Assembly (NCBI RefSeq): GCF_056746865.1
Contig: NZ_CM163382.1
DNA length: 64,000 nucleotides
Strand: one strand, 5' to 3'
The notes beneath the pieces were generated by a model. The model was not told the origin of the DNA and ran no database searches. It saw only the letters and a list, made by a program, of their open reading frames with translations. Below are positions 7,307 to 60,163 of the stretch, one piece after another. The position numbers and the translations under genes were made by a program. Each line of letters begins with the position of its first letter. Position 1 is the stretch's first letter.

Positions 7307-8030
7307 ATATTTCGCTCTCTTATTTTACAATTAATAGCTATTAAAAATAAACTTGTTGACTCCGATATATTAGAAATATCGGGATACCGAACTAAATATT
7401 TTTATATGCTTTTGCCAAGCAGACTCTATATCCACCCTGTATCACTATGCTTTCTGGCATACAATATCCCATCATTGACACAATGATAAACATATAAATA
7501 AAGAAAATTTTAAATCATATAACCAAATTACTTTCACTTTATTATCAATAAGTATTTTGATAAGAATACCTATACCACAGGGAGCCCCCTGAAACATAAT
7601 ATTAGCGAAGAATGATAACTGATAGTTACCATCTTAGAGATAAAAACTTATTTGTGTGGCGGGCATGACATGCCAGAGAATAAAATAGACTCAAAAAAAA
7701 TCACTAAGGGAGTTATTTGCAGCAAGAGAATTTCTTAGTCACTTGATTCAAAACAATCAAATTAAAAAGCGTTTTGATTATTAGCCTTATTTTATATATT
7801 GTGTCGTTACAGATAAAGTAAAAAACACATAATGGCATTTTCGGTTGACATATGTATTAACATATATTGCTTTATCATATAACCATATTTCAATTCAACT
7901 TACACTCTCAAGTTAATTGAAGCAGGCAATGCCTAATATATTTTTGCATCATAACCTATGATTAATATTAAAACACCAATCAGTTCGATTTTTAAACATT
8001 CAATAGCACCAATTAAATAAAAATATCTTT

Positions 8031-9062
8031 TTACTCGACACCTACAATTTTACAAGCATATTTTTTAGCATTGAACGCCAACTCGCTACGTTTATGATCT
8101 GCACTAACAAGTAATGAAAGAGCTTTTATCCATATATGTGGGTCATTCTCCAGCAAGATTCCATTTACATTTTGTTCAATGAAGTCACTATATGGTACAC
8201 AATTACTATATAAACCTACAGCCCCCATTCTGACAAAATCATAAAATTTTACGGGGCCGCGAGCCGAATTAAAGTCAGAGTCAAGTAATGGTGCTAACCC
8301 GATATCCAGATGATGAGTCTTGGTATACGCAAGATAATTTTGCCAACTCATCGGATGCAGTACTGAAACTCTTGGTAGGTCACGATAATATTTATAAATA
8401 TCATGCTCGCCAAAAATTTCAAAGCTGGCACGGGGACATTCTCCCAATACCCCCTCTACGATTTGTCTCAACCAATATTTTTCTTCCCGATGAGAACTTG
8501 AGCCATGATAAGCGATTTTTACTGATCGATGTGTTTCAATGAGTGCCAGTGACGGTTTAGCAGAAACAATCTCCGGGTTAAGATGTGCATATTTATTAGC
8601 CAAATAGGCAGTTGAAACCCAAATGTTATCACAATATTGCGTAATCCATCGATGCTGAGCCGCCGACCTCCTTATTATCTTGGTACGATACTCTTTTGGT
8701 AACGTAGATAGTGCAGTCGGGTCAAACAGGTCGTCATCCATAAAATAAACAATTCGAGAAAACCTGTCGTTATATCTTTCTATGTGCTGTTGCCATTTTG
8801 GGGAGATGAATCTAATGACGACAAGGGCAGATCCTCTAGGAATAAATATATCAGTGGATGCTAATGTGTCGATAAAATGACATTCTGCATCAGGAAACCG
8901 ACTTATAATAGCCGATTCAAAATAGGCTAATGTAGGTGATTTTCCCTCATGTAATATAAACAATCGTTCAAAGTTAATCTCAGAGCTTTGCTGACTTCTA
9001 TAACTCTGTTTATTTAATTTACGATAAGGCTTAAATAGTTTCCTGCGAATTAATTCATCCAT
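8031..9062 (-). CDS. hypothetical capsule region-2 protein, possible glycosyltransferase
   Basis: 343-aa ORF inside the serotype region, overlapping the upstream gene by 13 nt. No motif I can name with confidence. Confidence 0.4.
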   Translation of the reverse strand: MDELIRRKLFKPYRKLNKQSYRSQQSSEINFERLFILHEGKSPTLAYFESAIISRFPDAECHFIDTLASTDIFIPRGSALVVIRFISPKWQQHIERYNDRFSRIVYFMDDDLFDPTALSTLPKEYRTKIIRRSAAQHRWITQYCDNIWVSTAYLANKYAHLNPEIVSAKPSLALIETHRSVKIAYHGSSSHREEKYWLRQIVEGVLGECPRASFEIFGEHDIYKYYRDLPRVSVLHPMSWQNYLAYTKTHHLDIGLAPLLDSDFNSARGPVKFYDFVRMGAVGLYSNCVPYSDFIEQNVNGILLENDPHIWIKALSLLVSADHKRSELAFNAKKYACKIVGVE

Positions 9063-11071
9063 GGCAATACTATATTAGGAGCTCTACTTAAAGAGAAATC
9101 AGGACGTTCATAACTCAAATTTTGGTTGTAGGCTGGATCGTGTTTAAGTGCACATGCCCATCGTTTTTTCATATAGCGCAACTCAGATTTCGCTCGTATC
9201 TGCTGTTGTTTTGATACATCTTTACCACGGGAAATAGACTCATGATGATACAATTCAGCGAAGGGAGTCCAGATTACTCTCCAGCCAGCATCTCGAACTC
9301 TGAGACAATAATCTACGTCATTAAAAGCTATCGGCAAATTCGTTTCATCAAGTCCTCCGAGCGCCAGATATAACTCTTTATGAGTCAATAAACAAGCTGC
9401 AGTCACAGCTGACAGCTCTTGGGCACTAACAGCCCTACGCTGATATCCAGGATCGTTAGCTGACAAACCATTATGAAAATGATCTGCACAACCGCCAGGG
9501 CCGACAGCATCGCCTGCATGCTGAATCAAGCCATTTCCGTAATACAGCTTTGCTCCTACCACACCCACGCCGGGGCGTAATAAATGAGAAACCATTTCAT
9601 CCAGCCAGTCAATACTGATTACCTGAGTATCATTATTCAGCAAACATATCATATCTCCATGTGCGTTTCTCACTGCCAGATTGTTGATGGCTGAATAGTT
9701 AAACGGTTGATCATAAGAAATCACCCTAACGCCATAAACCTGTTCGATATGAGCAAGATAAGCAAGCGTCTCCTCCTCATCGCTCTGATTATCCATCACT
9801 ATGACTTCCATATTGGCATATTGCGTCTTTTGTATCAGGCTTTCGATACAAGGGCGTAAATGAGCAATACCATTTCTAGTAGGGATAATCACTGAAACCA
9901 ATGGCAATTGCGCTGGCAACGGCCAGCGCCAACGACATACACCATGAGGTGCTGCCTCAATGCTCACTCCTGATGGCAGTAAATCTTCTTTATCTTTCAG
10001 CGACTCAAAATCATCCGAAATCAACGCTCTTGCAGGCAAATGCATCATCAATGATGGAATATGGACTATCTGTTTCGGTTCACACATCTTTGCCAACTGT
10101 AGCCACCACTGATGACATGCCGCCGAATCAAAGGGAACACGGCCAGCACCATGTTCACGCCACAAACCACACCAACTAATATAGTTTTGGCTCTGTAGCA
10201 GCGTTTCATTCCAATCAGGTTTAAAGTTGGGAGAGTGACGTTCGCCTCTCTCGTCAAGCAGATCGTGATCACCGTATATCCATAAACAATCAGGATTCTG
10301 GCGTAACTGGTGGGCAACCCAAAATAAGGCGCCGGGCGAAACCACTGCCCCTACAGGCAACACCCACTGCCATTCGCCGCCTGACTGACTGGAGATTTCT
10401 GGATATGCACTATGCTCCTGCAGACTTATATTGCTTGCCGGATAACAGAGTGCCTGAATACTCTCCAGGGTCTTGTTGCGGCTCTGTTCATCCCCAACGC
10501 CAACAAGATGCAAACAGAAACGTGGTAATGTGCCCCAGCGAGCCAGCTGGCGCTTAATCAGCTTGTATTCGGCGGGTTCAAGGGTGTCGAAGTCTGCTAG
10601 CCACTCATCATAGCTATTGAGTGGCTTATCATCGCGAACTCTGCTGACAAGTTGGTAAGCCTGCTGCAAGTCCGTGAGCCACAAATGCCATGAAAGGCCT
10701 AACCTTTTGCGTCTGGACTTCGTTAAGCGTCGGTAAAAAGGCAAAACCCGGCGCAATCGACGCCAGAGACTCTCGGCGCGTGATACACAACAAAGCTGAG
10801 CAATCTCAACATTACACTCAGCGCCCTTAGTACTTGCCAGCAAAGACAAATGACTAGCTCCCGTGGGTAGATAAACCAGCTCCAGCAACGTGCCTCGACG
10901 AGTGACCGGCAACATCTGTTCATGCCATATTCCTTGTCCGCATTGCCAGCGCAGAAGAGTTTCACCTCGAGTTTGAGTCGTCGACACGCGCCCCCGAATC
11001 AGAAGCCAACCAGCATGAAGAGAAAACGAGTCTGGCAATGTCAGAGGCTGCCAATCGCGATAGCTACACAT
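9050..11071 (-). CDS. two-domain GT2-family glycosyltransferase; N-terminal GT domain looks degenerate
   Basis: 673 aa. C-terminal half has VSVIIPTRNG...VMDNQSDEEE...NYSAINN...LLNNDTQV GT2 motifs. Paralogous along its length to the 805-aa protein at 16457..18874 (for example YGDHDLLDERGERHSPNFKPDWN vs YSDEDKINARGERFDPHFKSDWN). Confidence 0.65.
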   Translation of the reverse strand: MCSYRDWQPLTLPDSFSLHAGWLLIRGRVSTTQTRGETLLRWQCGQGIWHEQMLPVTRRGTLLELVYLPTGASHLSLLASTKGAECNVEIAQLCCVSRAESLWRRLRRVLPFYRRLTKSRRKRLGLSWHLWLTDLQQAYQLVSRVRDDKPLNSYDEWLADFDTLEPAEYKLIKRQLARWGTLPRFCLHLVGVGDEQSRNKTLESIQALCYPASNISLQEHSAYPEISSQSGGEWQWVLPVGAVVSPGALFWVAHQLRQNPDCLWIYGDHDLLDERGERHSPNFKPDWNETLLQSQNYISWCGLWREHGAGRVPFDSAACHQWWLQLAKMCEPKQIVHIPSLMMHLPARALISDDFESLKDKEDLLPSGVSIEAAPHGVCRWRWPLPAQLPLVSVIIPTRNGIAHLRPCIESLIQKTQYANMEVIVMDNQSDEEETLAYLAHIEQVYGVRVISYDQPFNYSAINNLAVRNAHGDMICLLNNDTQVISIDWLDEMVSHLLRPGVGVVGAKLYYGNGLIQHAGDAVGPGGCADHFHNGLSANDPGYQRRAVSAQELSAVTAACLLTHKELYLALGGLDETNLPIAFNDVDYCLRVRDAGWRVIWTPFAELYHHESISRGKDVSKQQQIRAKSELRYMKKRWACALKHDPAYNQNLSYERPDFSLSRAPNIVLPWMN

Positions 11072-11174
11072 AATATAACTTACAGTCCAAAGTAACAGAT
11101 GGGGGATACAGATCCTTATTAGCAGGCCTGTAGATAAGAGCAGAAATAAACACCAAAGCGCTTGCTCAATATAT

Positions 11175-12143
11175 TCAAACCATCCATTTCTTCATTTTTT
11201 TTTTGAACCAAGAACCAGTAGGAATAGGTTCAACTGCTGATAACTCAGTCAACTTCACACTTAATCGTTCCATTTCAGCTTTTACTTGTCCTGAGAATGC
11301 GGCAGCGAGAAGGCACTCTTCATCATTACGATCATGTGCCTTGAAATAATCTTTATGCTTCACTCGATTAGCAGTAGCAGCACTACCACGCAGATGCTTG
11401 CCCAACAAGAATTCCTCAAGTGATTTAACTGCATAGTGATTTACCCTGACACCGCTCCAAATCACTTCAGCACTAACTCCTTTACCATGCCTCGGGTGCA
11501 GAATCAAATCACGACCTAACACATCAATATATCGACCATAACGCAAATCAGCATAATGCGGATTATGAAAGCGGTTAACTCGTTCTGGTTTGACCACACT
11601 TTTGAAGTTATGATGAACGTTAAAGGGTTGCGGGGCACGATAGGTAAAACGTTCAATAACCAACCCCTCTTCAGCAAACAGTTCACCACTAGAACCAAAA
11701 TTTGCCCAATTCAATGCAATAGCGCTGACACTCTCATCCTGAAACTTTTCAGAAAAAAAATCTGACAATTTGGTATCCGATTCAAGTGGCAATAAAAATT
11801 CATCAGCATCTATAAATGCAAGCAGGTCTATGTCTCTGGGACAGCTACGTAAAATATGTTCATATGCAGGTAATTGTGGCTTTTGATTCACCAAAATCGG
11901 TTGATCGAACATCTTCACAATACCTAAGCGAGCGAGGGACAATAGCAACTCTCGACTACCATCACGACTACCATTATCTGCAATAATAAACCCATCAACA
12001 CCTAATACTCGATGGTAAGCAATCCATTCAAGTAAACTTGAATACTCATCCTTGATAATAGCGGCTATATAGAGTTTCAAATTATCATCCAGCAAAAATG
12101 TATCAATGCCGATACTATCGGCATTGATACTCAATTTTATCAT
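11175..12143 (-). CDS. glycosyltransferase (GT2/GT92-like fold)
   Basis: 322 aa with LLEWIAYHRVLGVDGFIIADNGSRDGS. Paralog of the N-terminal domain of the 409-aa protein at 15216..16445. Confidence 0.55.
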   Translation of the reverse strand: MIKLSINADSIGIDTFLLDDNLKLYIAAIIKDEYSSLLEWIAYHRVLGVDGFIIADNGSRDGSRELLLSLARLGIVKMFDQPILVNQKPQLPAYEHILRSCPRDIDLLAFIDADEFLLPLESDTKLSDFFSEKFQDESVSAIALNWANFGSSGELFAEEGLVIERFTYRAPQPFNVHHNFKSVVKPERVNRFHNPHYADLRYGRYIDVLGRDLILHPRHGKGVSAEVIWSGVRVNHYAVKSLEEFLLGKHLRGSAATANRVKHKDYFKAHDRNDEECLLAAAFSGQVKAEMERLSVKLTELSAVEPIPTGSWFKKKMKKWMV

Positions 12144-12586
12144 CAGGCAGGAGAAAAAAATAACCCGTCCAACCAGGTGATCACCCCATCTGATTCCAGC
12201 CCAATAATTATTTTGGTAGAAAATGGAATACTGATATCAAATCCGCACCGAAGTTTTTGATGTTTTTCAGGTGGTTGTTTTAGTATAGCTGAAATAACAT
12301 CAGGCCGCTTTGTATTGAAAGGAAAACTGTATGTCATATGATCAATTTTAACAGCAACATGGGAATCTGCTTCCCCTTCAGCCACTAACCACCCCCGAAG
12401 TACAATCCGGCCATTGACGATCTTTAGTGGTTGTTGTTCTGATGGCGAATCAATATTCCAATATAATTGACCGCCAGACTTGACGAGTGGCGATTTTGTG
12501 AGGGTATAAATAACAGCCATACGATTCCTTCTATTTGAAATATTGCTCAAATAACTCAGACTATCTCCAGATTGCCTTTCAAGCAA
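12143..12586 (-). CDS. hypothetical protein; stand-alone ~90-aa module shared with two neighbouring proteins
   Basis: 147-aa ORF. Shares IVLRGW...RPDV...CGF motifs with the C-terminus of the 409-aa protein and the N-terminus of the 426-aa protein. Confidence 0.4.
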   Translation of the reverse strand: MLERQSGDSLSYLSNISNRRNRMAVIYTLTKSPLVKSGGQLYWNIDSPSEQQPLKIVNGRIVLRGWLVAEGEADSHVAVKIDHMTYSFPFNTKRPDVISAILKQPPEKHQKLRCGFDISIPFSTKIIIGLESDGVITWLDGLFFSPA

Positions 12587-12713
12587 GATAATCCCAAGTT
12601 TTTATGGGATATACATAACTATGGATACAACCAAGAAAAATGATTTTGCCTCAATGGAAGAAATTACGGTAATAGAATTCCATTATCCCATTTACAATCC
12701 ACTGCTACGTTAT

Positions 12714-13880
12714 TTAATCAGCCCCAAAAAGATCTCTGGTATAAACCTTTTCGGCTACATCGACTAATTCAGCAGCCATGCGATTACAGAGAATAACATC
12801 GCTCAGCGCTTTAAACTCAGCCAGTTCCCGAATCACTCGGGAATTGAAGAATGTATCTTCATGAATAGTCGGTTCAAAGACCACTACCTCAATACCCTTG
12901 GCCTTAATACGCTTCATGACTCCCTGTATCGCAGAAGAGCGGAAATTATCTGAGCCAGCCTTCATCACCAAACGATGGATGCCCACCACCTTAGGTTTAC
13001 GACGCAATACGCTATCAGCAATAAAGTCTTTGCGAGTGCAATTAGCATCGACAATGGCGCGGATCAGATTGTTGGGTACCTTGTTGTAGTTGGCCAGCAA
13101 CTGCTTGGTGTCTTTGGGCAGGCAATAGCCACCATAACCAAATGAGGGGTTGTTATAATGGCTACCGATACGCGGATCCAAGCCAACCCCTTCGATAATC
13201 TGACGACTGTCCAAGTCATGCGACTGAGCATAGGTGTCCAACTCATTGAAATAGGCCACCCGCATTGCCAGATACGTATTAGCAAACAACTTGATGGCCT
13301 CCGCCTCGGTGCTGCCCGTTAGCAGTACCGGAATGTTCTGCTTGATCGCCCCTTCTTGCAACAATTCAGCAAATCGTTTGGCCCGCTCACTACGCTCACC
13401 CACCACAATACGGGAAGGGTATAGGTTGTCATACAGCGCCTTGCCCTCACGCAAGAACTCGGGAGAGAAGATCAGATTATCGGTGCCTAACTCACTACGC
13501 AGCCGCTCGGTAAAGCCTACCGGAATGGTAGACTTGATCACCATCACTGCATTAGGGTTGATACTGATCACATCGCGAATCACCCACTCGACTGAGTCGG
13601 TGTTAAAGTAGTTGGTCTCGGGATCATAATCGGTGGGGGTAGCAATAATCACAAATTCGGCCGCCTCATACGCCTCGAATTTATTCAGCGTCGCCTTAAG
13701 GTTCAGATGATTGTTGGCCAGATAGGCCTCCAGCTCTTTATCTGCAATGGGGGATTGACGGCGATTAATCAGTTCGACTTTCTCTGGTAATATATCCAGT
13801 GCAATTACCTGATGATGTTGAGCTAATAGCACTGCAATAGAAAGACCTACATAACCAGTTCCAGCTATAGCTATTTTCAT
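12714..13880 (-). CDS. ugd: UDP-glucose 6-dehydrogenase
   Basis: [24 protein letters not shown]-binding N-terminus and overall UDP-glucose/GDP-mannose dehydrogenase family features. Start placed at the internal Met (ATG at 13878-13880); the track start is at 13910. Confidence 0.85.
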
Positions 13881-13928
13881 GTTATAAAATACCTGCTCAA
13901 TTAAGTTCACATATATTTTTTACAAGTA

Positions 13929-15209
13929 TTATGAGGGTGCAGATTCAGTATTATATAATTTACTCATTTTTTCATGATAAAATAAAAGCGAAGGGCAAGA
14001 ATTATACTCAAAATTATTAATCTTTTTCTTGTATATTTTTCTAACAATTTCAGAAGTAAAACAGAAATTGTTTTTAGGTGGCTTCACAATAAATCTAGAA
14101 GCGACCTGAATAATTATTTTTGATGGCTTTTCATGAGCCACCACATCAAGATCCACACTCGCACCAGAAAATACATGGATTACTCTTTTATATTTATTTA
14201 CAAAATATGGAAGCATATTTATAGAATAAGAATCACCAAAAAAAACCACGACACTATCATCTATTTTGCGATTATTTTCAAATACTCTCACCCATCCTCT
14301 ATTATTAACCCCGTTATCATAAACAATATAATTATCAATACCAGAGAAATCAGCCTTCAATATATCCTGCGAAATCGGAGGGGTTGTCTTAATTCCTAAA
14401 TCGCCATAACTCCTTTTAATGTAAAAAGGGAAAATAGAATTATCGAGGACCGTGTTGTTTTTATTTAAGATATTATCTATATATTTAGCCACCTGCAATG
14501 CAGCAAAATCAGACCAGTGCGTATCAACTTTAGAATATGAGCTATCACCGATATCTCTTAATATATCTAAAGGATAAACTATATCAGTACAAATGGAGAG
14601 TAACTGTTCAACTGGTGTCTCTGGCGATTTTTTAAACGGATAGTATGATGACAATACATTCTCTTTGGCTGGAGCCAAACAAAAAACATATTCAATCCGT
14701 TGATCATTCATATATTTCCGAATAAAATCTAGATAGTTCTTCCAAACAGAAATATCATCATTTGTAATTTTTTTAATTCCAATAAACTGCTCTTTACTCT
14801 GATTGGTATCATGATCCAAGAATAAATACCCATTGTGTCCAAAAAGCACTTTTTGAGGAGGAGTTATATCTACTCTCGCTATTACATAATCAACATTATT
14901 AATAGTTGTTCCAATACTAAACGACTCCAAACTAGTAATAGCATAACTAAAACCACACATAGTATCACTAACATTTCCATTGAAATGTCTTACTACGTCT
15001 AATCTGGGTGTATTATAGTCAAGAATTAATTTCTCTCCATTCTTAACTATATATATATTATTCTGACAACCTTTATAGAGTAGCCATCCCGATAAATGAA
15101 TCGCAGAGCAATTTGACTTAAAATAACTACATGTCCGAGGACTATCAATTGAAAACTTGAGCCCGGTAATATCTGGTCTTATAACAGATAGTTTGATATC
15201 ATATTTCAT
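13929..15209 (-). CDS. putative SGNH/AlgJ-like polysaccharide-modifying acyltransferase with N-terminal shared module
   Basis: 426 aa. N-terminus carries the HLSGW...RLDV...CGF module. The body has DTHW and FFGDSYS motifs reminiscent of SGNH/AlgJ-type O-acyltransferases. Assignment by motif only. Confidence 0.45.
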   Translation of the reverse strand: MKYDIKLSVIRPDITGLKFSIDSPRTCSYFKSNCSAIHLSGWLLYKGCQNNIYIVKNGEKLILDYNTPRLDVVRHFNGNVSDTMCGFSYAITSLESFSIGTTINNVDYVIARVDITPPQKVLFGHNGYLFLDHDTNQSKEQFIGIKKITNDDISVWKNYLDFIRKYMNDQRIEYVFCLAPAKENVLSSYYPFKKSPETPVEQLLSICTDIVYPLDILRDIGDSSYSKVDTHWSDFAALQVAKYIDNILNKNNTVLDNSIFPFYIKRSYGDLGIKTTPPISQDILKADFSGIDNYIVYDNGVNNRGWVRVFENNRKIDDSVVVFFGDSYSINMLPYFVNKYKRVIHVFSGASVDLDVVAHEKPSKIIIQVASRFIVKPPKNNFCFTSEIVRKIYKKKINNFEYNSCPSLLFYHEKMSKLYNTESAPS

Positions 15210-15215
15210 TAAATT

Positions 15216-16445
15216 TTAAACCAATTTTGAAACTAATTCTTCATTGAGTGGAAATTCTAAACTAACTAATCCAGCCTGATTTAAAGTATATATCTGAACG
15301 CTTGAGATAAGTTGTGTAGGAAGCGACAACGAACATATAAACCCGCACCCAATTCCATTACCAATCCCAGCTTTTTCTACATCAGGCCGATCATAAAATG
15401 ATAGTGAGTCTGGGCGTATTAAAAAAGAGTTATTTATAACCATTACAATACTACTACATGGTTTTTTATCATTATCTACTGCCCAACCTTTTAGAACTAT
15501 AGCACGTCCATCTTTTTTAATTGTATCAATAAATCCAACCCCCATACTTTTAGTAGTCTTATAAAGTGGTTCACTTCTGCTTTCTATGAGCGGCTGATAT
15601 CCACAATCAAGCAATTTCTCATTAATGGTTGCGATTTGACATTTTACTTTTCTCAGAAACCATAATGGAATATGTTGCTCAATATTATTCAAATCATGAT
15701 TTTTAAAAAATTGCAGATTTCTACCGAGACTATTTTTTAGTGTTGTAGCTCTACCTCGAGCGACCTTTTTATTCAAGAATTCAGCCTTTGACTTAATTAC
15801 ATAATGATTAAGTCTGATAACTGACCAGTCAATCACCTCACTTATTCCATCATAACTATGATGTTCTTCTCCACTTGGCATAACAAATTTCTTATCTGAA
15901 TTAATAATAAAAGCATGGGGTGTTGGTCCTGCTTTGATAACATCAGAAACACGAACTATTGACTTATAATGCCTATTAACAGGATGCAGATCAGCAGCTC
16001 TCTTAACGAATCGTTCTATAACAAGACCGTCATCAGGTAAAATTGAATGAGATGAGCCATATACAGCCCAGTTGAGTGATATTGCACCAATCGCCTGATC
16101 ATTTAATAGCGGCATCAGTTTGTTTAAACCATCTTCATAGTCATTTGGTGAAATAAATTCATCTGCATCAATAAATGCAACCCATCTATCTTTATCAAGC
16201 ATTGACAATATTTTATTGTACGCCCCCAATTGTGGGGGAATACCATCTTGTGTCGGATAGTCAATCCTTTTGATAATATTCGCTTTATCTAGAAAATATA
16301 AAAGCTCACTACTTCCATCACTACTAATATTGTCGGCAATATATATATCATTAATGCCAAGAGCCATATGGTAAGCAATCCACTCAACAATGAATGGGTA
16401 TTCATTTTTTAAAATTGCACCTATTGAAAGCATCGCTGTTATCAC
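15216..16445 (-). CDS. glycosyltransferase (GT2/GT92-like) fused to C-terminal shared module
   Basis: 409 aa with VEWIAYHMALGINDIYIADNISSDGS at the N-terminus and IVLKGW...RPDV...CGF at the C-terminus. Confidence 0.55.
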   Translation of the reverse strand: MITAMLSIGAILKNEYPFIVEWIAYHMALGINDIYIADNISSDGSSELLYFLDKANIIKRIDYPTQDGIPPQLGAYNKILSMLDKDRWVAFIDADEFISPNDYEDGLNKLMPLLNDQAIGAISLNWAVYGSSHSILPDDGLVIERFVKRAADLHPVNRHYKSIVRVSDVIKAGPTPHAFIINSDKKFVMPSGEEHHSYDGISEVIDWSVIRLNHYVIKSKAEFLNKKVARGRATTLKNSLGRNLQFFKNHDLNNIEQHIPLWFLRKVKCQIATINEKLLDCGYQPLIESRSEPLYKTTKSMGVGFIDTIKKDGRAIVLKGWAVDNDKKPCSSIVMVINNSFLIRPDSLSFYDRPDVEKAGIGNGIGCGFICSLSLPTQLISSVQIYTLNQAGLVSLEFPLNEELVSKLV

Positions 16446-16456
16446 TCTACTTAAAA

Positions 16457-18874
16457 TTAAATGGAGAAGTCTTCTCTATCTTTAGATAGGTTTGGACTGT
16501 AGAAGGGATCGAGTTCGAGATGTTTACCCCATTTGCTTTTCATAAAGTTCACTTCCCTGGCAAATCTGGCTATTTTCTCCGGGGAATCTTCGGCACCTCG
16601 ACTAATTGATTCATAGTGGTAAAGCTCGGCATAAGGCGTCCAGAGATTACGGTACCCCGCTTCGCGTACTTTCAGACAGAAGTCCACATCATTAAAAGCA
16701 ACATGCAAATTCTCTTCATCCAACCCGGCAACTTCCTCATAAATATTTTTGCGAATAAGCAGGCAAGCAGCCGTGACGGCCGAGAGAGTTTGTGTCAACA
16801 ACAAACGGCTGAAATAACCCGGATGATGGCGAGGGTACTGTTTATGAGAGTGTCCCGCTACACCACCAATACCGAGAATAACTCCGCCATGTTGTAAAGT
16901 ATCATTACTGTAATAGAGCTTGGCCCCGACACAACCAATCTCTGGTCGCATGCAGTGACTCACCATCTCGGTCAGCCAATCCGGGTTGATTACCTCGACA
17001 TCATTATTGACCAAGCCGATAATGGCCCCCTTGGCGTGACGAACGCCAAAGTTGTTGATGGCCGAGTAGTTAAAGGGGTGGTCATAGCGCAATACTCTGA
17101 CCCGGCTGTCTTCCTGCTGGATCTGGGCAAAGAAATCGAGAGTCTCCTGCTCCACGCTGCCATTATCGAGAATCAGGATCTCGAAATGGGTATAGGTACT
17201 GCGATCGATGATGCTACGCACCGCAGTTTCGGTTAGAGCACGACGATCCCGAGTAGGAATAAGCAAACTAACCAGTGGGGCTGGTTCTGAAATAGGGTAA
17301 CGTACCCGATAGGTGTTGGGAACCAACCCCGCCTCAACCGTAACCTCAGGTTGCTGCTTAGAAAAATAGTCGCGTAGCGCTTTGATGCCAGCCTCCGTGG
17401 TGTAGCTCTTCTCGCCAGAAGCCAAAGCTGTAGAGCCCTCAATGGTACGCCAGTGGTAAAGCACACGGGGAATGTGAACTATCTGCTCTGCAGCTACATG
17501 AGGCAGACAACGCAGCAGCAGATCCTGATCCTGACTTCCTTCTACTCCCAAACGGAATCCCCCAATCTGTTGCAGCAGAGAGCGACGATAGACCCCGAGA
17601 TGCGAGACATAGTTTTGCGAAAAGAATAAATCTGGATTCCAATCGCTCTTGAAATGAGGATCAAAACGCTCACCGCGGGCATTAATTTTATCTTCGTCAC
17701 TGTAAAGGATCTGGGTATGAGGCTGCTCACAAATAGCCTGAGCCATAAATAGCATAGCATGCTCTGGCAACACATCATCATGATCCAACAGAGCTACGAA
17801 ATCCCCTTTTGCAATTTCGAGAGCACTGTTGGAAGCAGCCGAAATATGACCATTGTGCTTTCGGTAGACAACTTTGATTCGGCTATCCTTGGCCTCGTAT
17901 TCGCGCAGTACGCGTTGCACATGTTCTTTTGGCGAACGATCATCGGCAATACAGAGTTCCCAATGGGGATAGCTTTGAGCCAGGACAGAATCCAGACAGG
18001 CACGCAAGTAGATCTCCGCTGGATTATAAACAGGAATCACAATAGATATAACTGGAGGGTGAGTCATACTGGCAAGCATCAGACTCACCTCTTTGTTGCC
18101 AGGCAACGAAGGTAATTCCACCGTTTCTATCCATTCCTCATAACCGACAGAAAACGGGGTAACGCTGAACGTTTCGTTATAGAATGCCTGCAGGCGCTCT
18201 ATTGACATATCGCCATTGTCCATCAATATGGATTTTTTGATTTTTTCTAGCGGCATGTCACGATAGCTTTGGTGTTCTTTTTGAATGCGAGCCAATAGTG
18301 CAGACTCAACTACTTTCACATCAACAGCTGCTATTTCAAACTGATTAATTGCAAATGTTGCTGCCTGTTCTAATGGATCAAATCGTAATGCAACAAGAGG
18401 CGATTCCAGATAGAACAAACGACTGACGCTGACCGCTCGTTTATATGGCAACGTTACTGTTTCAAACTCATTGAACCCTTTACCTGTATCCAAATATAAC
18501 TTAGCTAATCCTTGCTTTGGTTGGCAATTAATAGAGATATTAAATTGATACCATCCCTTGCTAATATTTGAGAGCTGCTCCAAATCAATAATGAAAAATG
18601 GATCATTTCCCTCTGCAACCCAACTTTGTGAATTATCTATATCTATCGAGAGCTGATTTGTTGCCAGATAGGGCAGCACAACTGTATTTTGCATTTTACT
18701 CACTGCAGGAGAAACGTCCCATGCTTCGCATGGTTTCCTACCGAGTAACATCCCATAACGCTTAAAATGTTCTCTTGCTGACAACCCGGTCTGTTTCACA
18801 TCCAAATAGTTATGCAGATACCAATGTTCATCAAAGTGAGCTAGCAACTCGTCTTGGTGATTTTTAACCATCAC
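16457..18874 (-). CDS. dual-domain GT2 glycosyltransferase, candidate capsule polymerase
   Basis: 805 aa with two GT2 cores (ISIVIPVYNP...LLDHDDVL and VSLLIPTRDR...ILDNGSVEQE...NYSAINN...LVNNDVEV). N-terminal HWYLHNYLDVKQTGLSAREHFKRYG motif. Strong RBS (AGGGAG) before the start. Confidence 0.7.
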   Translation of the reverse strand: MMVKNHQDELLAHFDEHWYLHNYLDVKQTGLSAREHFKRYGMLLGRKPCEAWDVSPAVSKMQNTVVLPYLATNQLSIDIDNSQSWVAEGNDPFFIIDLEQLSNISKGWYQFNISINCQPKQGLAKLYLDTGKGFNEFETVTLPYKRAVSVSRLFYLESPLVALRFDPLEQAATFAINQFEIAAVDVKVVESALLARIQKEHQSYRDMPLEKIKKSILMDNGDMSIERLQAFYNETFSVTPFSVGYEEWIETVELPSLPGNKEVSLMLASMTHPPVISIVIPVYNPAEIYLRACLDSVLAQSYPHWELCIADDRSPKEHVQRVLREYEAKDSRIKVVYRKHNGHISAASNSALEIAKGDFVALLDHDDVLPEHAMLFMAQAICEQPHTQILYSDEDKINARGERFDPHFKSDWNPDLFFSQNYVSHLGVYRRSLLQQIGGFRLGVEGSQDQDLLLRCLPHVAAEQIVHIPRVLYHWRTIEGSTALASGEKSYTTEAGIKALRDYFSKQQPEVTVEAGLVPNTYRVRYPISEPAPLVSLLIPTRDRRALTETAVRSIIDRSTYTHFEILILDNGSVEQETLDFFAQIQQEDSRVRVLRYDHPFNYSAINNFGVRHAKGAIIGLVNNDVEVINPDWLTEMVSHCMRPEIGCVGAKLYYSNDTLQHGGVILGIGGVAGHSHKQYPRHHPGYFSRLLLTQTLSAVTAACLLIRKNIYEEVAGLDEENLHVAFNDVDFCLKVREAGYRNLWTPYAELYHYESISRGAEDSPEKIARFAREVNFMKSKWGKHLELDPFYSPNLSKDREDFSI

Positions 18875-54523: not shown

Positions 54524-55744
54524 TTAAATTTGCTTTTCATACAATCGGTAACGCTTGTACGGCTCCGCCCCAATGCGTTCCAGCATGTTATTCATGCCTG
54601 TATTGGTTTCGAGGATCCATGACATCTCCAGCGCATCGATCTTCCGGCGGGCAAACGGATCGCGTAAGGCTTCAATCAATAACAGCGCAATCACCGGGCC
54701 GATGCGGCTGAACTGATACTCGTCGCGCACGCCCATCAGCGGTACTCGCGCAGTTCGCACACCGCTGACTTTCAAACGCCACAGCAATTTTGCCCAGCCG
54801 AAGGGAAAGAGCGATCCGTTCAGATCGGCAATCGCCTCGTTGATGTTCGGCAAGCCGACAATAAACGCGCAGGGTGCAGAATCAATCTCAGCGATATAGA
54901 TCATATCGTCCGGCACCAGATATTTAAGTTGATCGCCCATGGTCGCGAATTCATGTTCGGTAAACGGCACAAATCCCCAGTTGTGCTGCCAGCCAGAGTT
55001 GAAAATCTCACGCAGGATCTGCATCTCTTCGGCAAACCGCTGACGATTGATGCAGCGAATGGTCACCTTTTTGCGCACCTGATCCATCAGTTTTTTTAGC
55101 GCCGGAGAGAAAGTGAGATCGGTTCGCTGCATCCACCACGCCAGTAAATCAATGCCTTTGTGATAACCCAGTTGTTCAATATGCGCGGCATACCACGGTT
55201 TGCCGTGTGGCATCATCGCACAGGGTGGTGTGTCAAAACCTTCAATCAGTAATCCGCTTTCCTGATTGATATTCAGGCTGAAAGGACCGCTGATCTTACT
55301 TGCACCTTGTGACTTCAACCACGCTTCCGCTGCGCCAAACAACGCGGCAAAAACCTGCGGATCATCAATGGCGTCAATCATGCCGAAATGACCGGTATCT
55401 TTGCCGTAACGCTCGCGGTGCAAGGTATCTATTTGCGCGGTAATACGCCCAACTATCTGCCCCGCTTTTTTTGCCACCCACGCCTGCCAGATGATATGGT
55501 CCGTCCCCGGATTTTTCGCAGACAAATGCTCGTTGCGTTCAATGAATAAAGGGGGTATCCAGTTTGGATCGTCGGGATAAAGTGATGACGGAAAAGCGAT
55601 AAATGCCTTAAGGTCATTTTTATTAATTACTTTTTCAATTTTAATCATCAGCAGATCGCATTCCATAGTTCTGTTCTGTGGGTAACAAATAATTAACGGT
55701 GACAAACAGGTTGCAACAGCAACGAACGGCACCTTAATAATCAA
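54524..55744 (-). CDS. yghO: YghO-like protein, possible acyl-CoA N-acyltransferase fold (uncertain)
   Basis: 406-aa track ORF; the true start is probably an internal Met (MECDLL... or MIKIEKV...). Position next to glcC matches E. coli yghO. The fold assignment is an inference. Confidence 0.5.
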   Translation of the reverse strand: MIIKVPFVAVATCLSPLIICYPQNRTMECDLLMIKIEKVINKNDLKAFIAFPSSLYPDDPNWIPPLFIERNEHLSAKNPGTDHIIWQAWVAKKAGQIVGRITAQIDTLHRERYGKDTGHFGMIDAIDDPQVFAALFGAAEAWLKSQGASKISGPFSLNINQESGLLIEGFDTPPCAMMPHGKPWYAAHIEQLGYHKGIDLLAWWMQRTDLTFSPALKKLMDQVRKKVTIRCINRQRFAEEMQILREIFNSGWQHNWGFVPFTEHEFATMGDQLKYLVPDDMIYIAEIDSAPCAFIVGLPNINEAIADLNGSLFPFGWAKLLWRLKVSGVRTARVPLMGVRDEYQFSRIGPVIALLLIEALRDPFARRKIDALEMSWILETNTGMNNMLERIGAEPYKRYRLYEKQI

Positions 55745-56033
55745 CCCAATGAATACAAACGACGAATAAATAGTATTTATTAATGATTACGATAAGGTCA
55801 GAGACTACACAGAAGCGCCACAATGCCTTTTGTCGATTTAAGGCGACCGGACAAGGCTTCTTCTTAATATATTCATAAATTAAATATCATTCACAATAAA
55901 AACAAAAAAACTCAAACTCATTATTTAAATCAATGTTCATTTTCACACTGATGAAAATACTATCTCATTTATCTTTTATGCCTATATAATCCACCGCATT
56001 ATTGTCATTTTATTTTGGATATCCAATTTTTTC
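55745..56033. promoter_or_regulatory. AT-rich divergent promoter region between yghO-like gene and the lipid operon
   Basis: 289-bp AT-rich intergenic region between divergently oriented genes. No individual promoter elements mapped. Confidence 0.3.
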
Positions 56034-57764
56034 GTGGTGTATATGTCTAATAAAATCTTTACGCATTCCCTACCTATGCGCTATGCCGATTTTCCAACGC
56101 TTGTTGATGCTTTGGACTACGCCGCTCTGAGTAGCGCCGGAATGAATTTTTATGACAGACGTTGCCAACTTGAAGATCAACTGGAATATCAGACGTTAAA
56201 AGCACGTGCCGAAGCTGGTGCGAAGCGGTTGTTATCGCTGAACCTGAAAAAAGGCGATCGCGTGGCACTGATTGCCGAAACAAGTAGCGAGTTCGTAGAG
56301 GCTTTTTTTGCCTGCCAGTATGCCGGCTTAGTCGCCGTCCCGTTGGCGATTCCAATGGGCGTTGGTCAGCGGGATTCCTGGAGCGCCAAATTGCAGGGTT
56401 TACTGGCAAGTTGCCAGCCCGCAGCCATTATCACTGGTGATGAGTGGTTGCCACTGGTCAATGCCGCGACGCATGACAACCCCGAATTACATGTTTTAAG
56501 CCACGCCTGGTTTAAGGCATTACCGGAAGCCGATGTTGCGCTCCAGCGTCCAGTTCCGAACGATATCGCCTACCTCCAGTACACCTCCGGCAGCACCCGT
56601 TTTCCCCGTGGCGTCATTATCACCCATCGCGAAGTGATGGCTAATCTACGTGCTATAAGCCACGACGGCATTAAATTACGCCCTGGCGACCGCTGCGTCT
56701 CCTGGCTGCCTTTCTACCATGATATGGGACTGGTCGGCTTTCTCCTGACCCCCGTCGCCACGCAGCTTTCAGTAGATTATTTGCGCACTCAGGATTTTGC
56801 CATGCGTCCTCTGCAATGGCTTAAATTGATCAGTAAAAATCGCGGCACCGTTTCCGTTGCGCCGCCGTTTGGCTATGAATTGTGCCAGCGCCGCGTGAAT
56901 GAAAAAGATCTCGCTGAACTGGATCTTTCCTGCTGGCGCGTCGCTGGTATTGGTGCAGAACCCATCTCCGCAGAACAACTCCATCAATTCGCTGAATGTT
57001 TCCGTCAGGTTAACTTTGACAATAAAACTTTCATGCCGTGCTACGGACTGGCAGAAAATGCGCTGGCTGTCAGCTTCTCTGATGAAGCCTCCGGGGTTGT
57101 GGTTAACGAAGTGGATCGCGACATCCTCGAATATCAGGGTAAAGCCGTCGCGCCGGGTGCAGAGACACGCGCCGTATCGACTTTCGTCAACTGCGGCAAA
57201 GCGTTGCCGGAACATGGTATTGAAATCCGCAATGAAGCAGGTATGCCGGTCGCGGAACGTGTGGTAGGCCATATTTGCATCTCCGGTCCCAGTCTGATGA
57301 GCGGTTACTTTGGCGACCAGGTTTCGCAAGACGAGATTGCCGCGACGGGCTGGTTAGACACCGGCGACCTCGGTTATCTGCTGGACGGTTATCTGTATGT
57401 CACCGGACGCATTAAAGATCTGATTATTATTCGTGGCCGTAATATCTGGCCGCAGGATATTGAATATATAGCGGAACAGGAACCGGAAATTCATTCTGGC
57501 GATGCGATTGCTTTTGTTACCGCCCAGGAAAAAATCATTTTGCAGATCCAGTGTCGGATCAGCGACGAAGAACGTCGCGGGCAGCTTATCCACGCGCTGG
57601 CGGCACGGATCCAAAGCGAATTTGGCGTGACCGCGGCTATCGATCTGTTGCCGCCCCACAGTATTCCCCGAACGTCCTCCGGCAAGCCTGCCCGTGCGGA
57701 AGCGAAAAAACGTTATCAGAAGGCTTATGCTGCCAGTCTTAATGTGCAGGAATCCCTGGCATGA
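56034..57764 (+). CDS. fatty acyl-AMP ligase / acyl-ACP synthetase (ANL superfamily)
   Basis: 576 aa, AMP-binding motif YLQYTSGSTRFPRGV, then YGLAEN and C-terminal GRIKDLIIIRGRNIWPQDIE typical of FAAL-type adenylating enzymes. Confidence 0.8.
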   Translation: MVYMSNKIFTHSLPMRYADFPTLVDALDYAALSSAGMNFYDRRCQLEDQLEYQTLKARAEAGAKRLLSLNLKKGDRVALIAETSSEFVEAFFACQYAGLVAVPLAIPMGVGQRDSWSAKLQGLLASCQPAAIITGDEWLPLVNAATHDNPELHVLSHAWFKALPEADVALQRPVPNDIAYLQYTSGSTRFPRGVIITHREVMANLRAISHDGIKLRPGDRCVSWLPFYHDMGLVGFLLTPVATQLSVDYLRTQDFAMRPLQWLKLISKNRGTVSVAPPFGYELCQRRVNEKDLAELDLSCWRVAGIGAEPISAEQLHQFAECFRQVNFDNKTFMPCYGLAENALAVSFSDEASGVVVNEVDRDILEYQGKAVAPGAETRAVSTFVNCGKALPEHGIEIRNEAGMPVAERVVGHICISGPSLMSGYFGDQVSQDEIAATGWLDTGDLGYLLDGYLYVTGRIKDLIIIRGRNIWPQDIEYIAEQEPEIHSGDAIAFVTAQEKIILQIQCRISDEERRGQLIHALAARIQSEFGVTAAIDLLPPHSIPRTSSGKPARAEAKKRYQKAYAASLNVQESLA

Positions 57765-58675
57765 ATCAAACTGTCGCGGTGACGGGCGCTACCGGGTTTA
57801 TCGGTAAATATATTATCGATAACCTGCTCGCCCGCGGCTTTCACGTTCGCGCATTGACGCGTACTGCCCGCGCTCACGTCAATGATAATCTCACCTGGGT
57901 GCGCGGTTCGCTGGAAGATACTCATTCACTTAGCGAGCTGGTTGCCGGAGCCAGCGTAGTGGTCCATTGCGCCGGGCAAGTGCGCGGGCACAAAGAAGAG
58001 ATTTTCACCCGCTGTAACGTTGACGGCAGCCTGCGCCTGATGCAAGCAGCAAAAGAGAGCGGCTTTTGCCAACGTTTTCTGTTTATCTCTTCGCTGGCGG
58101 CGCGCCATCCCGAGCTCTCCTGGTATGCAAAATCCAAATACGTCGCCGAGCAACGACTGGCAGCAATGGCGGACGAAATTACGCTGGGCGTTTTTCGCCC
58201 GACAGCCGTGTATGGTCCCGGCGATAAAGAGTTAAAACCGCTGTTTGACTGGATGCTGCGCGGCCTGCTGCCACGACTTGGTGCGCCAGATACACAGCTC
58301 TCTTTTCTGCACGTCACCGATTTCGCGCAAGCAGTGGGTCAGTGGTTAAGCGCCGAAACTATACAGACGCAAACCTATGAATTATGCGATGGCGTCGTCG
58401 GCGGCTATGACTGGCAACGCGTACAGCAACTTGCCGCCGACGCCCGTTGCGGTTCCGTGCGAATGGTTGGCATTCCTCTGCCGGTACTCACCGGCCTTGC
58501 GGATATCAGTACCGCGTTGAGTCGCCTGGCAGGTAAAGAACCTATGCTGACCCGCTCGAAAATTCGTGAATTAACCCACGCCGACTGGTCGGCAAGTAAT
58601 AACCGTATTTCTGAAGATATTAATTGGTTTCCCGGGATTAGCCTGGAACACGCATTACGCAACGGGCTATTTTGA
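57761..58675 (+). CDS. NAD(P)-dependent epimerase/dehydratase-family (extended SDR) reductase
   Basis: 304 aa, VAVTGATGFIGKYI Rossmann motif and YAKSK catalytic YxxxK. Start overlaps the upstream stop (ATGA). Confidence 0.75.
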   Translation: MNQTVAVTGATGFIGKYIIDNLLARGFHVRALTRTARAHVNDNLTWVRGSLEDTHSLSELVAGASVVVHCAGQVRGHKEEIFTRCNVDGSLRLMQAAKESGFCQRFLFISSLAARHPELSWYAKSKYVAEQRLAAMADEITLGVFRPTAVYGPGDKELKPLFDWMLRGLLPRLGAPDTQLSFLHVTDFAQAVGQWLSAETIQTQTYELCDGVVGGYDWQRVQQLAADARCGSVRMVGIPLPVLTGLADISTALSRLAGKEPMLTRSKIRELTHADWSASNNRISEDINWFPGISLEHALRNGLF

Positions 58676-58706
58676 TTGTCTTGTTTAAAGGTGTGTTAAC
58701 GTTTCT

Positions 58707-58955
58707 ATGGTAAATCGTGAAATAGTAATGGATTACATCCTTTCCTGTTTACAGGATTTGGTCGAAAACGGTGTGGAAATTAAGCCCGACAGCGATCTCG
58801 TCAACGATCTTGGCCTGGAGTCGATCAAAGTGATGGATCTCTTAATGATGCTGGAAGACAGATTCGATATTTCCATTCCTATTAATATTCTGCTGGATGT
58901 CAAAACCCCTGCGCAATTAATGGAAACTCTACTTCCATGGCTGGAGAATAAATAA
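58707..58955 (+). CDS. acyl carrier protein
   Basis: 82 aa (true start perhaps an internal Met), DLGLESIKVMDL helix-II motif with a candidate phosphopantetheine serine. Confidence 0.65.
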   Translation: MVNREIVMDYILSCLQDLVENGVEIKPDSDLVNDLGLESIKVMDLLMMLEDRFDISIPINILLDVKTPAQLMETLLPWLENK

Positions 58956-60127
58956 TGGGGCTATACGATAAATATGCGCGCCTTGCTGGCGAGCGACTGC
59001 AATTTAGTGACAACGGGTTAACACCGTTTGGCACCTGTATTGATGAAGTGTATTCCGCCACCGAAGGCCGGATCGGCAATAAAAAAGTGATTCTGGCCGG
59101 GACCAATAATTATCTCGGTTTAACCTTTAATCATGATGCCATCAGCGAAGGTCAGGCCGCGTTAGCGGCCCAAGGTACCGGCACCACCGGTTCTCGTATG
59201 GCAAACGGCAGTTATGCGCCGCACCTGGCGTTAGAGAAAGAGATTGCCGAGTTTTTCAATCGCCCTACCGCTATCGTTTTTTCAACCGGTTATACCGCTA
59301 ATTTAGGCGTCATCAGCGCACTTGCCGACCATAACGCCGTGGTGTTACTGGATGCCGACAGCCACGCCAGTATTTATGACGCCTGTTCTCTCGGTGGCGC
59401 GGAAATTATTCGTTTCCGCCATAACGATGCTAAAGATCTGGAACGGCGCATGGTTCGCCTCGGTGAACGGGCGAAAGAGGCGATTATCATCGTTGAGGGT
59501 ATCTACAGCATGCTCGGTGACGTTGCGCCGTTAGCGGAAATTGTTGATATCAAACGTCGTCTCGGTGGTTATTTGATTGTCGATGAAGCGCATTCGTTTG
59601 GCGTGTTAGGCGCAACGGGGCGCGGACTGGCTGAAGCTGTCGGCGTTGAAGATGATGTGGATATTATCGTTGGCACCTTCAGTAAAAGTCTGGCCTCGAT
59701 TGGCGGTTTTGCTGTCGGTTCGGAAGCGATGGAAGTGCTGCGCTACGGCAGCCGCCCGTATATTTTTACCGCCTCTCCTTCTCCGTCCTGCATTGCGACC
59801 GTGCGCTCGTCGTTAAGAACTATTGCCACACAACCAGAGCTGCGGCAAAAGCTGATGGATAATGCCAACCATCTGTATGACGGTCTGCAAAAACTGGGTT
59901 ATGAGTTAAGTTCACATATTAGCCCGGTAGTGCCGGTAATAATCGGTTCGAAAGAGGACGGTTTACGCATCTGGCGCGAGCTTATTTCGCTGGGCGTTTA
60001 TGTGAATCTTATCCTGCCACCTGCCGCGCCTGCAGGCATCACGCTGCTGCGCTGTAGCGTAAACGCTGCTCACAGTCGTGAGCAAATCGATGCCATCATT
60101 CAGGCATTTGCTACTCTGAAGCAGTAA
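58955..60127 (+). CDS. alpha-oxoamine synthase family PLP enzyme (BioF/Kbl/serine palmitoyltransferase-like)
   Basis: 390 aa, GTTGSRMANG, DEAHSFG and the PLP-lysine motif GTFSKSL. Start overlaps the ACP stop (TAATG). Confidence 0.85.
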   Translation: MGLYDKYARLAGERLQFSDNGLTPFGTCIDEVYSATEGRIGNKKVILAGTNNYLGLTFNHDAISEGQAALAAQGTGTTGSRMANGSYAPHLALEKEIAEFFNRPTAIVFSTGYTANLGVISALADHNAVVLLDADSHASIYDACSLGGAEIIRFRHNDAKDLERRMVRLGERAKEAIIIVEGIYSMLGDVAPLAEIVDIKRRLGGYLIVDEAHSFGVLGATGRGLAEAVGVEDDVDIIVGTFSKSLASIGGFAVGSEAMEVLRYGSRPYIFTASPSPSCIATVRSSLRTIATQPELRQKLMDNANHLYDGLQKLGYELSSHISPVVPVIIGSKEDGLRIWRELISLGVYVNLILPPAAPAGITLLRCSVNAAHSREQIDAIIQAFATLKQ

Positions 60128-60133
60128 TGTGAG

Positions 60134-60163
60134 CCCGCCGTGGTGTTGCGCCACGGCGGGTTT
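60134..60163. terminator. hairpin terminator between convergent operons
   Basis: Perfect inverted repeat cccgccgtgg / ccacggcggg with a 7-nt loop, 6 nt after the AOS stop and abutting the stop of the convergent permease gene, followed by TTT. Confidence 0.55.

Follow-up and report, generated by a model that had tools for sequence, protein, structure and literature searches.

Which lipid, if any, is made by an Escherichia coli operon that combines a fatty acid-activating ligase, a reductase, its own acyl carrier protein (ACP) and an amino acid-condensing synthase? The operon lies on a 64,000-nt stretch of E. coli chromosome (NZ_CM163382.1, assembly GCF_056746865.1; the whole stretch is called the window, and coordinates are window positions unless stated otherwise). 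Four co-directional plus strand open reading frames (ORFs) were found there at 56043-60127, in a list of ORFs and by direct reading of the letters. A sequence-only reading of this DNA had recognised a ligase, an extended short-chain dehydrogenase/reductase (SDR), an ACP and an alpha-oxoamine synthase, and had proposed that a fatty acid is loaded on the private ACP, condensed with an amino acid and reduced at the ketone. All four ORFs exist, their family scores are far above chance, and the proposed logic agrees with profile searches and with published work on these proteins. We identify the four genes, with a probability of about 90%, as the aasR-epi(cerR)-acpR-spt operon of E. coli; with the divergent gene yghO it makes up the bacterial (dihydro)ceramide pathway of five genes that was first described in Caulobacter.

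The finding is already known from a crystal structure (2011), the demonstration of transfer from the fatty acyl-AMP ligase (FAAL) to an ACP (2021), the reconstitution of 3-oxo-sphinganine synthesis (2022) and the RefSeq annotation of spt. Residual interest lies in the native product, the regulation and the uncharacterised half of the genomic island to which the operon belongs. About 78% of complete E. coli genomes encode a complete ceramide pathway under selection and a dedicated Lpt-like candidate exporter, without a reported E. coli sphingolipid. The standard E. coli lipidome is largely derived from K-12, a strain that has lost the locus, and the product and its inducing condition, if found, would revise the inventory of the E. 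coli envelope. Bacterial sphingolipids modulate immunity. A sphingolipid of E. coli would therefore matter for host interaction, and also wherever BL21 serves as a 'sphingolipid-free' expression host.

Enzymes of the aasR-epi-acpR-spt operon

The last gene of the operon (58955-60127, plus strand) is annotated in RefSeq as 'spt: serine palmitoyltransferase'. Its product, a pyridoxal 5'-phosphate (PLP)-dependent alpha-oxoamine synthase, scores 599 bits against the Spt equivalog model NF047599 (cut-off 500). In the profile comparison that had been suggested for this enzyme, Spt thus passes, and the four sister families stay below their own cut-offs, namely BioF (333 bits, <426), Kbl (297 bits, <460), CqsA (221 bits, <428) and ALAS (219 bits, <339). 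The top PDB matches are the serine palmitoyltransferases (SPTs) of Sphingomonas paucimobilis (2JG2) and S. wittichii (2X8U) with 375 and 372 bits, followed at a distance by Kbl (at most 204 bits) and BioF (at most 183 bits), with ALAS and CqsA likewise far below. An identity as BioF, Kbl, CqsA or ALAS is ruled out by the curated cut-offs and the PDB ranking. These enzymes share with E. coli Spt the fold-type I PLP family and a Claisen-type decarboxylative condensation, but they differ in acyl donor (CoA or pimeloyl-ACP) and in gene context.

The GTFSKSL motif on which the first assignment had drawn was located at residues 240-246 of the synthase, Lys244 being the PLP lysine. H137, D210, H213, K244 and R366 are in register with H159, D231, H234, K265 and R390 of the S. 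paucimobilis enzyme (SpSPT), Arg390 of which is thus conserved. The soluble Sphingomonas SPTs align with E. coli Spt over the full length, with conserved PLP site. Unlike them, E. coli Spt scores best on the NCBI 'BetaP' Spt model (599 bits, versus 428 bits for 'AlphaP') and carries a leucine, Leu354 (60014-60016), aligned with SpSPT Arg378, a residue which we take to contact the serine carboxylate.

The first gene, aasR (56043-57764, plus strand), encodes the ligase, also known as EcFAAL. In the NCBIfam search it scores 878 bits against the FAAL model NF006624 (cut-off 600) versus 102 bits against FadD, and thus bears the signature of the FAAL subfamily and not that of acyl-CoA ligases. Residues 2-573 are identical to PDB 3PBK, an E. 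coli 'Fatty Acyl-Adenylate Ligase', and the motifs TSGST, YGLAE, GDLG and SGK are intact. The ORF opens with GTG at 56034 and ends at 57764. Public annotations differ in the start, giving versions of 562, 573, 576 and 577 amino acids; ATG 56043 (MSNKIF) is used in the crystallised 3PBK and part of the RefSeq records, and ATG 56076 in other records. A clear Shine-Dalgarno sequence was not seen at any candidate start within 56034-56078. The start is likely ATG 56043, because the crystallised construct and some RefSeq records begin with MSNKIF, and the profile alignment also favours it.

Crystals of EcFAAL contained lauroyl- and myristoyl-AMP (Zhang 2011, cited after PMC11837247), and the enzyme acylates its cognate holo-ACP in vitro (PMC8460268, eLife 2021). 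The ACP used in the latter study is UniProt A0A2X1NC35, whose identity to the ACP of the window could not be confirmed. Sphingolipids go unmentioned in PMC8460268 and PMC11837247. As in the mycobacterial FAAL systems (FadD32-Pks13 and others), EcFAAL forms an acyl-AMP and passes it to the phosphopantetheine of a carrier protein and not to CoA; in contrast to them, it hands the acyl group to a free-standing ACP, which supplies a PLP-dependent condensing enzyme, instead of to a polyketide synthase or non-ribosomal peptide synthetase.

This acceptor is encoded by acpR (58707-58955, plus strand), a gene for a specialised ACP of 82 amino acids. ACP models match it at E values of about 1e-8 to 1e-9 (best 6e-9), below the AcpP cut-offs, and structures of E. 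coli AcpP give 21.8 bits only. Ser39 in the motif GLES is the predicted 4'-phosphopantetheine site. AcpR hereby combines an ACP fold and a phosphopantetheine serine with a sequence distinct from the housekeeping AcpP. The gene directly precedes spt, as in Rhodobacteria, and this adjacency is repeated in the loci inspected.

Between ligase and ACP lies epi (57761-58675, plus strand), a homologue of cerR, encoding a putative NAD(P)-dependent ketoreductase of the extended SDR type. The sequence holds GATGFIG at residues 9-15 and the catalytic pattern S110 / Y122xxxK126. Since a curated CerR/Epi model does not exist, it matches generic extended-SDR models only (NCBIfam, E down to 3e-27, all below cut-off). 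Identity to Caulobacter CC_1164 is given as 34% in PMC9386255, and our own comparison with one contig of Caulobacter sp. yielded 35%. An extended SDR with a GxxGxxG motif, a Ser-Tyr-Lys triad, CC_1164 homology and a position between aasR and acpR corresponds to what is expected of CerR/Epi, and the enzyme would reduce the 3-keto group, either of the free keto base or of the N-acylated keto-ceramide.

The sequence-only reading had described the four genes as coupled by overlapping stop and start codons. This holds for two of the three junctions, that of ligase and SDR (ATGA, 57761-57764, exact) and that of acpR and spt (TAATG, 58953-58957, with the ATG at 58955), whereas SDR and ACP genes are separated by a 31-nt spacer.

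The same locus has been characterised in BL21(DE3), where ECD_02850-02854 were named aca (yghO), aasR, epi, acpR and spt (Padilla-Gomez et al. 2022, Front Microbiol 13:961041, PMC9386255). It shares locus, gene order and flanks with the window, and the two have the same WP accessions for AcpR, Spt and YghO. AcpR (AcpR_Ec, ECD_02853) and Spt (SPT_Ec) are 100% identical, and the differences are allelic only, three amino acids in AasR (AasR_Ec) and one in Epi; strains such as 7/2, L73 and 222 match the window itself at 100% identity. Co-expression of AasR_Ec, AcpR_Ec and SPT_Ec in BL21(DE3) led to 3-oxo-sphinganine in vivo (PMC9386255). AcpR_Ec was labelled by beta-alanine, indicating that it carries 4'-phosphopantetheine, and AasR_Ec functioned with AcpR_Ec and not with Caulobacter AcpR_Cc (PMC9386255). 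SPT_Ec incorporated [14C]serine with a strong preference for acyl-AcpR over acyl-CoA and acyl-AcpP (PMC9386255). Heterologous expression and in vitro loading of the ACP, both suggested along with the sequence-only reading, are thus largely available in the literature, and they agree with it (PMC9386255, PMC8460268).

The parallel to the sphingolipid loci of Caulobacter that had been drawn from the letters likewise stands, as the same five protein families occur in both. In Caulobacter crescentus CC_1162-CC_1165 and CC_1154 (spt, acpR, epi/cerR, aasR and aca/bcerS) stand for the same chemistry. Identities of the E. coli proteins are 53% for Spt, 42% for AasR, 41% for AcpR, 34% for Epi and 44% for Aca/YghO (PMC9386255); in our own comparison with the Caulobacter sp. 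contig we found 51% for Spt, 40% for AcpR, 35% for Epi and 44% for YghO. Paralogues of LptF and LptG lie within the locus in both organisms. The differences concern the surroundings: the E. coli locus is devoid of LptC2 and of head-group genes of the cpgABC type (CpgB being a GGDG/LCB5-type kinase) and instead carries genes for a YtfJ-like protein, a CHAD-like protein, YghQ, the P-loop proteins YghR/S/T and PitB. Moreover, in Caulobacter the native lipid is known.

YghO and the proposed pathway

The gene yghO (54524-55666, minus strand) is divergent from the operon and would complete the pathway; it had not been mentioned in the sequence-only reading. RefSeq names the product 'protein YghO', and by sequence it has no match in Pfam, NCBIfam or PDB. 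Against Caulobacter CC_1154 it shows 44% identity at 98% coverage (PMC9386255), and the homologue of Caulobacter sp. gave the same identity in our hands. The family is large, with 1128 representative clusters at E<1e-30. An AlphaFold (AF2) model built from 50 diverse homologues reached a predicted local distance difference test score of 95.1, and the PDB folds that match it best are those of tandem GNAT acyltransferases such as 2wpw (E 1e-15, template modelling score ~0.6). Full-length homology to CC_1154 and a predicted GNAT fold are the features of bCerS/Aca. The tandem-GNAT fold fits the published assignment as acyl-CoA N-acyltransferase and bacterial ceramide synthase, and YghO would then turn the sphingoid base into (dihydro)ceramide. 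The sequence-only reading ended its pathway at an amino alcohol. Its logic of condensation and reduction stands, but with YghO as N-acyltransferase the expected end product would be dihydroceramide and not just the amino alcohol.

Conservation of gene linkage points in the same direction. A genome scan with an alignment of YghO was evaluated for the best 80 loci, which span alpha-, beta-, gamma- and deltaproteobacteria, Nitrospirota and Gemmatimonadota and include no Enterobacterales (the contexts in Hafnia and Citrobacter were compared separately). Linkage was counted within 10 kb of the YghO homologue in the 59 loci of at least 15 kb among these 80. An Epi-like ORF was found in 32 of the 59 loci, lying between aasR and acpR in those inspected; AcpR was found in 27 and Spt in 29. 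LptG-like (39/59) and LptF-like (33/59) ORFs were linked to the YghO homologue more often than Spt. The order spt-acpR-epi-aasR with divergent yghO recurs in Pseudomonas, Nitrococcus, Methyloversatilis, Nitrospira and others, and outside E. coli yghO is usually followed by one gene and then lptF2-lptG2.

The following pathway is proposed. AasR would adenylate a free fatty acid and load it on the 4'-phosphopantetheine of the private AcpR, CoA and AcpP not being used, as published for these proteins. Spt, with Lys244 forming the Schiff base to PLP, would condense L-serine and acyl-AcpR under decarboxylation to 3-oxo-sphinganine, as reported for the identical protein by thin-layer chromatography (TLC) and [14C]serine. 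Judged from homology, fold and conserved gene linkage, YghO may then N-acylate the base and the SDR may reduce the 3-keto group, in either order. Even in Caulobacter the order of these last two steps is disputed, with reduction before acylation (Olea-Ozuna) or acylation before reduction (Stankeviciute/Klein). By analogy to Caulobacter, the ceramide would probably be exported by the adjacent LptF2/LptG2 paralogues together with LptB.

The candidate exporter genes follow the operon in convergent orientation. lptG2 (60162-61241, minus strand) scores 309 bits with TIGR04408 and lptF2 (61238-62308, minus strand) 318 bits with TIGR04407; the products are 28% identical to K-12 LptG and 29% identical to K-12 LptF, respectively. 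Among the ORFs beside YghO homologues, all 40 LptF-like and 35 of 45 LptG-like ones are closer to E. coli LptF2/G2 than to K-12 LptF/G. They are thus family paralogues of the housekeeping pair linked to sphingolipid genes, for which a transport role is suggested by the Caulobacter system. LptC2/F2/G2 were noted within the Caulobacter locus (PMC11324152). According to a preprint of April 2026, Caulobacter cells that make sphingolipids depend for their transport on LptF2/G2, which bind LptB (bioRxiv 10.64898/2026.04.12.717747); the locus of E. coli UTI89 is drawn in the same figure as that of Caulobacter (bioRxiv 10.64898/2026.04.12.717747).

Distribution, expression and competing explanations

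The locus was found in 4206 of 5426 complete E. coli genomes (~78%), including BL21 and uropathogenic and enterotoxigenic strains, and is absent from 22%. At least 80% of the query is present at 96-100% identity in 4067 of those genomes. In one genome a copy of the locus is on a plasmid, and in the human isolate NZ_AP027902.1 an IS1A element lies inside the region matching window 55700-60400. Spt has close homologues (84-96%) in E. albertii, Pseudocitrobacter, Citrobacter amalonaticus and Hafnia.

Ratios of non-synonymous to synonymous substitution rates (dN/dS) were determined between the window and one strain that is 96.4% identical. They amount to 0.06 for yghO, 0.12 for aasR, 0.09 for epi, 0.075 for spt, 0.09 for lptG2, 0.06 for lptF2 and 0.20 for the ytfJ-like gene, compared to 0.14 for the neighbouring glcC. 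acpR does not differ between the two strains, no reading frame is broken, and the G+C content of the locus is host-like. The locus is real, intact and under selection.

In K-12 MG1655 an IS5 element (insH9) replaces the 5' end of yghO, the operon, lptG2, lptF2, the ytfJ-like gene, the gene for a 274-aa protein and the 5' part of yghQ. The site, at 6147-7341 of the MG1655 locus, corresponds to window ~55600 to beyond 64000. Due to this IS5-linked deletion the 'textbook' strain is devoid of the pathway and cannot make the lipid, and the 'yghO' and 'yghQ' of K-12 are truncated remnants. The sequence-only reading had placed the lipid outside the textbook E. coli lipidome and called the pathway possibly cryptic. 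A cryptic pathway is plausible, but the absence from textbooks also reflects the deletion in K-12.

The divergent intergenic region between yghO and the operon (55667-56042, 376 bp) is presumed to be regulatory. It is AT-rich (G+C 0.35 vs ~0.52 in the flanks) and hardly varies between strains whose overall identity is ~96%. A perfect TATAAT is found at 55985-55990 (plus strand), while the -35 match is only 3/6. A perfect -10 without a good -35 would fit a silenced or activator-dependent promoter, and we infer that the operon is controlled by a promoter of this kind. Within the operon, promoter-like or terminator-like signals are not above the expectation from shuffled sequence. After the last stop codon, a G+C-rich hairpin (60130-60164; 16-bp stem with 10 G-C pairs, weak T-tract) represents a candidate terminator between the convergent spt and lptG2.

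Several observations weigh against a ceramide pathway that is complete and at work in E. coli. In the sections of PMC9386255 considered here, the 3-oxo-sphinganine of E. coli was identified by co-migration in TLC and not by mass spectrometry, and BL21(DE3) empty-vector extracts were without SPT activity (no 3-oxo-sphinganine) despite the chromosomal locus. Our literature search did not turn up any sphingolipid that E. coli produces naturally, and a scan for consensus sigma-70 promoters called none on the plus strand upstream of the operon. As EcFAAL was crystallised with C12 and C14 adenylates, the long-chain base formed in nature might have a chain below C18. Caulobacter CerR is described as periplasmic, its export route being undefined, whereas the E. 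coli SDR starts straight at the Rossmann motif (MNQTVAVTGATGFIG, 57761-57810) with no visible signal peptide. An assay of the E. coli SDR was likewise not found. In laboratory culture, expression of the operon seems to be weak or absent. The literature search brought up nothing on the regulation of the locus or on the function of yghQ/R/S/T.

Could the enzymes act as described and yet serve a product other than a structural membrane sphingolipid, such as a C14-C16 sphingoid base, a 1-deoxy base derived from alanine or glycine, or a diffusible amino-ketone signal of the CAI-1 type? The C12 and C14 acyl-adenylates in the EcFAAL crystals, Leu354 of Spt at the position of SpSPT Arg378 and the family relationship to CqsA (221 bits) would speak for it. 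The CqsA score is far under the cut-off of 428, however, and of the 18 linked Spt homologues with a recognisable motif, 15 share the leucine at the Arg378 position. The tight and wide linkage to a ceramide synthase homologue and to LptF/G paralogues points to a two-chain outer-membrane lipid, and we regard a product of another class as unlikely. That the synthase is a spare BioF or Kbl for biotin or threonine metabolism is scarcely credible: older database names for the same protein do include '8-amino-7-oxononanoate synthase', but Spt passes its curated cut-off where BioF and Kbl fail, the PDB ranking agrees, and a FAAL with a private ACP misfits biotin or threonine metabolism. Activity with serine and long-chain acyl thioesters has moreover been published (PMC9386255).

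A different objection takes the locus for a horizontally acquired relic, decaying or permanently silent, that has no present function in E. coli. Reports of a native lipid are lacking, BL21 extracts show no chromosomal SPT activity, and the locus is dispensable, being lost from K-12 by the IS5-linked deletion, missing in 22% of complete genomes and hit by IS1 inside the matched 4.7-kb region in one strain. Decay would nevertheless be hard to reconcile with every compared gene being intact across ~4% divergence at dN/dS values of 0.06-0.20, comparable to glcC (0.14), with a G+C content matching the host, with the retention of a whole 14-gene block in Hafnia and Citrobacter amalonaticus and with close homologues of Spt or of the 274-aa protein in Pseudocitrobacter, Serratia, Sodalis and Pantoea. 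We consider a relic very unlikely and favour the reading of the operon and yghO as a (dihydro)ceramide pathway.

Locus layout and the wider island

The gene order is glcDEFGBA, glcC, yghO (minus), the operon (plus), lptG, lptF, a ytfJ-family gene, a hypothetical gene, yghQ, yghR and yghS (all minus), followed by yghT and pitB. A block of 14 genes, yghO | aasR-epi-acpR-spt | lptG2-lptF2-ytfJ-like-274aa-yghQ-yghR-yghS | yghT-pitB, is kept whole in Hafnia and C. amalonaticus (~5.5-20.5 kb of the loci compared) between unrelated flanking genes, so that the same block is present in three genera. Being whole between different flanks, it behaves as one (mobile) unit.

Beyond lptF2, the YtfJ-family gene (62339-62902, minus strand; TIGR01626, 212 bits) encodes a protein with an N-terminal signal peptide, beginning MMSSRLIIALIIMLLAPGVQA, and its position is conserved in Hafnia and Citrobacter. 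The next gene (62911-63735, minus strand) encodes the 'hypothetical protein' of 274 aa, a member of the island that by sequence has no match in Pfam, NCBIfam or PDB. For this protein, as for YghO, structure prediction only was informative, and the model suggests a CHAD-like all-helical fold. Homologues exist in Serratia, Sodalis, Pantoea, Raoultella and others, and in Luteibacter and Dyella they lie ~9 kb from yghO homologues. The last feature is the 3' end of a full-length yghQ (63735-64000, minus strand; ORF and RefSeq annotation), a gene for a MOP-family flippase that continues beyond the window.

YghR/S/T are P-loop kinase-like proteins with weak, sub-threshold dTMP-kinase matches only. 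They were considered as homologues of the Caulobacter ceramide kinase CpgB, and this was rejected since CpgB is of the GGDG/LCB5 type. In a betaproteobacterial metagenome-assembled genome (locus 6793-10007), homologues of YghR (56%) and YghS (54%) and a YghQ-like flippase lie between spt and yghO. Their place inside a sphingolipid cluster suggests that YghQ/R/S, y-genes of K-12, belong to sphingolipid metabolism.

The locus of Pseudomonas marginalis (11079-16898) is the closest among the best 80 loci (YghO 70%, Spt 75%). After yghO it holds a nucleotidyltransferase-like ORF, lptF2-lptG2, a 325-aa protein with the motif VVVGGDGT (a CpgB-like lipid kinase) and further ORFs. A GGDG ceramide kinase is thus present in the loci of P. 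marginalis and Caulobacter; E. coli lacks it, as it lacks the head-group gene set of P. marginalis.

Conserved gene linkage and fold prediction together allow a wider, tentative proposal, which as a whole we rate as rather unlikely. The operon would supply the biosynthetic enzymes at the centre of a mobile envelope-lipid island of 14 genes, from yghO to pitB, of natural E. coli and other Enterobacterales. The ceramide might receive a head group unlike that of Caulobacter, perhaps phosphate-bearing (YghR/S/T, the CHAD-like 274-aa protein and PitB), be flipped by YghQ and be delivered to the outer membrane by LptB2-LptF2G2. If true, E. coli would possess a conditionally expressed second outer-leaflet lipid. 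In Hafnia, a gene for an Sfp-type phosphopantetheinyl transferase lies beside yghO (Hafnia locus 4570-5226).

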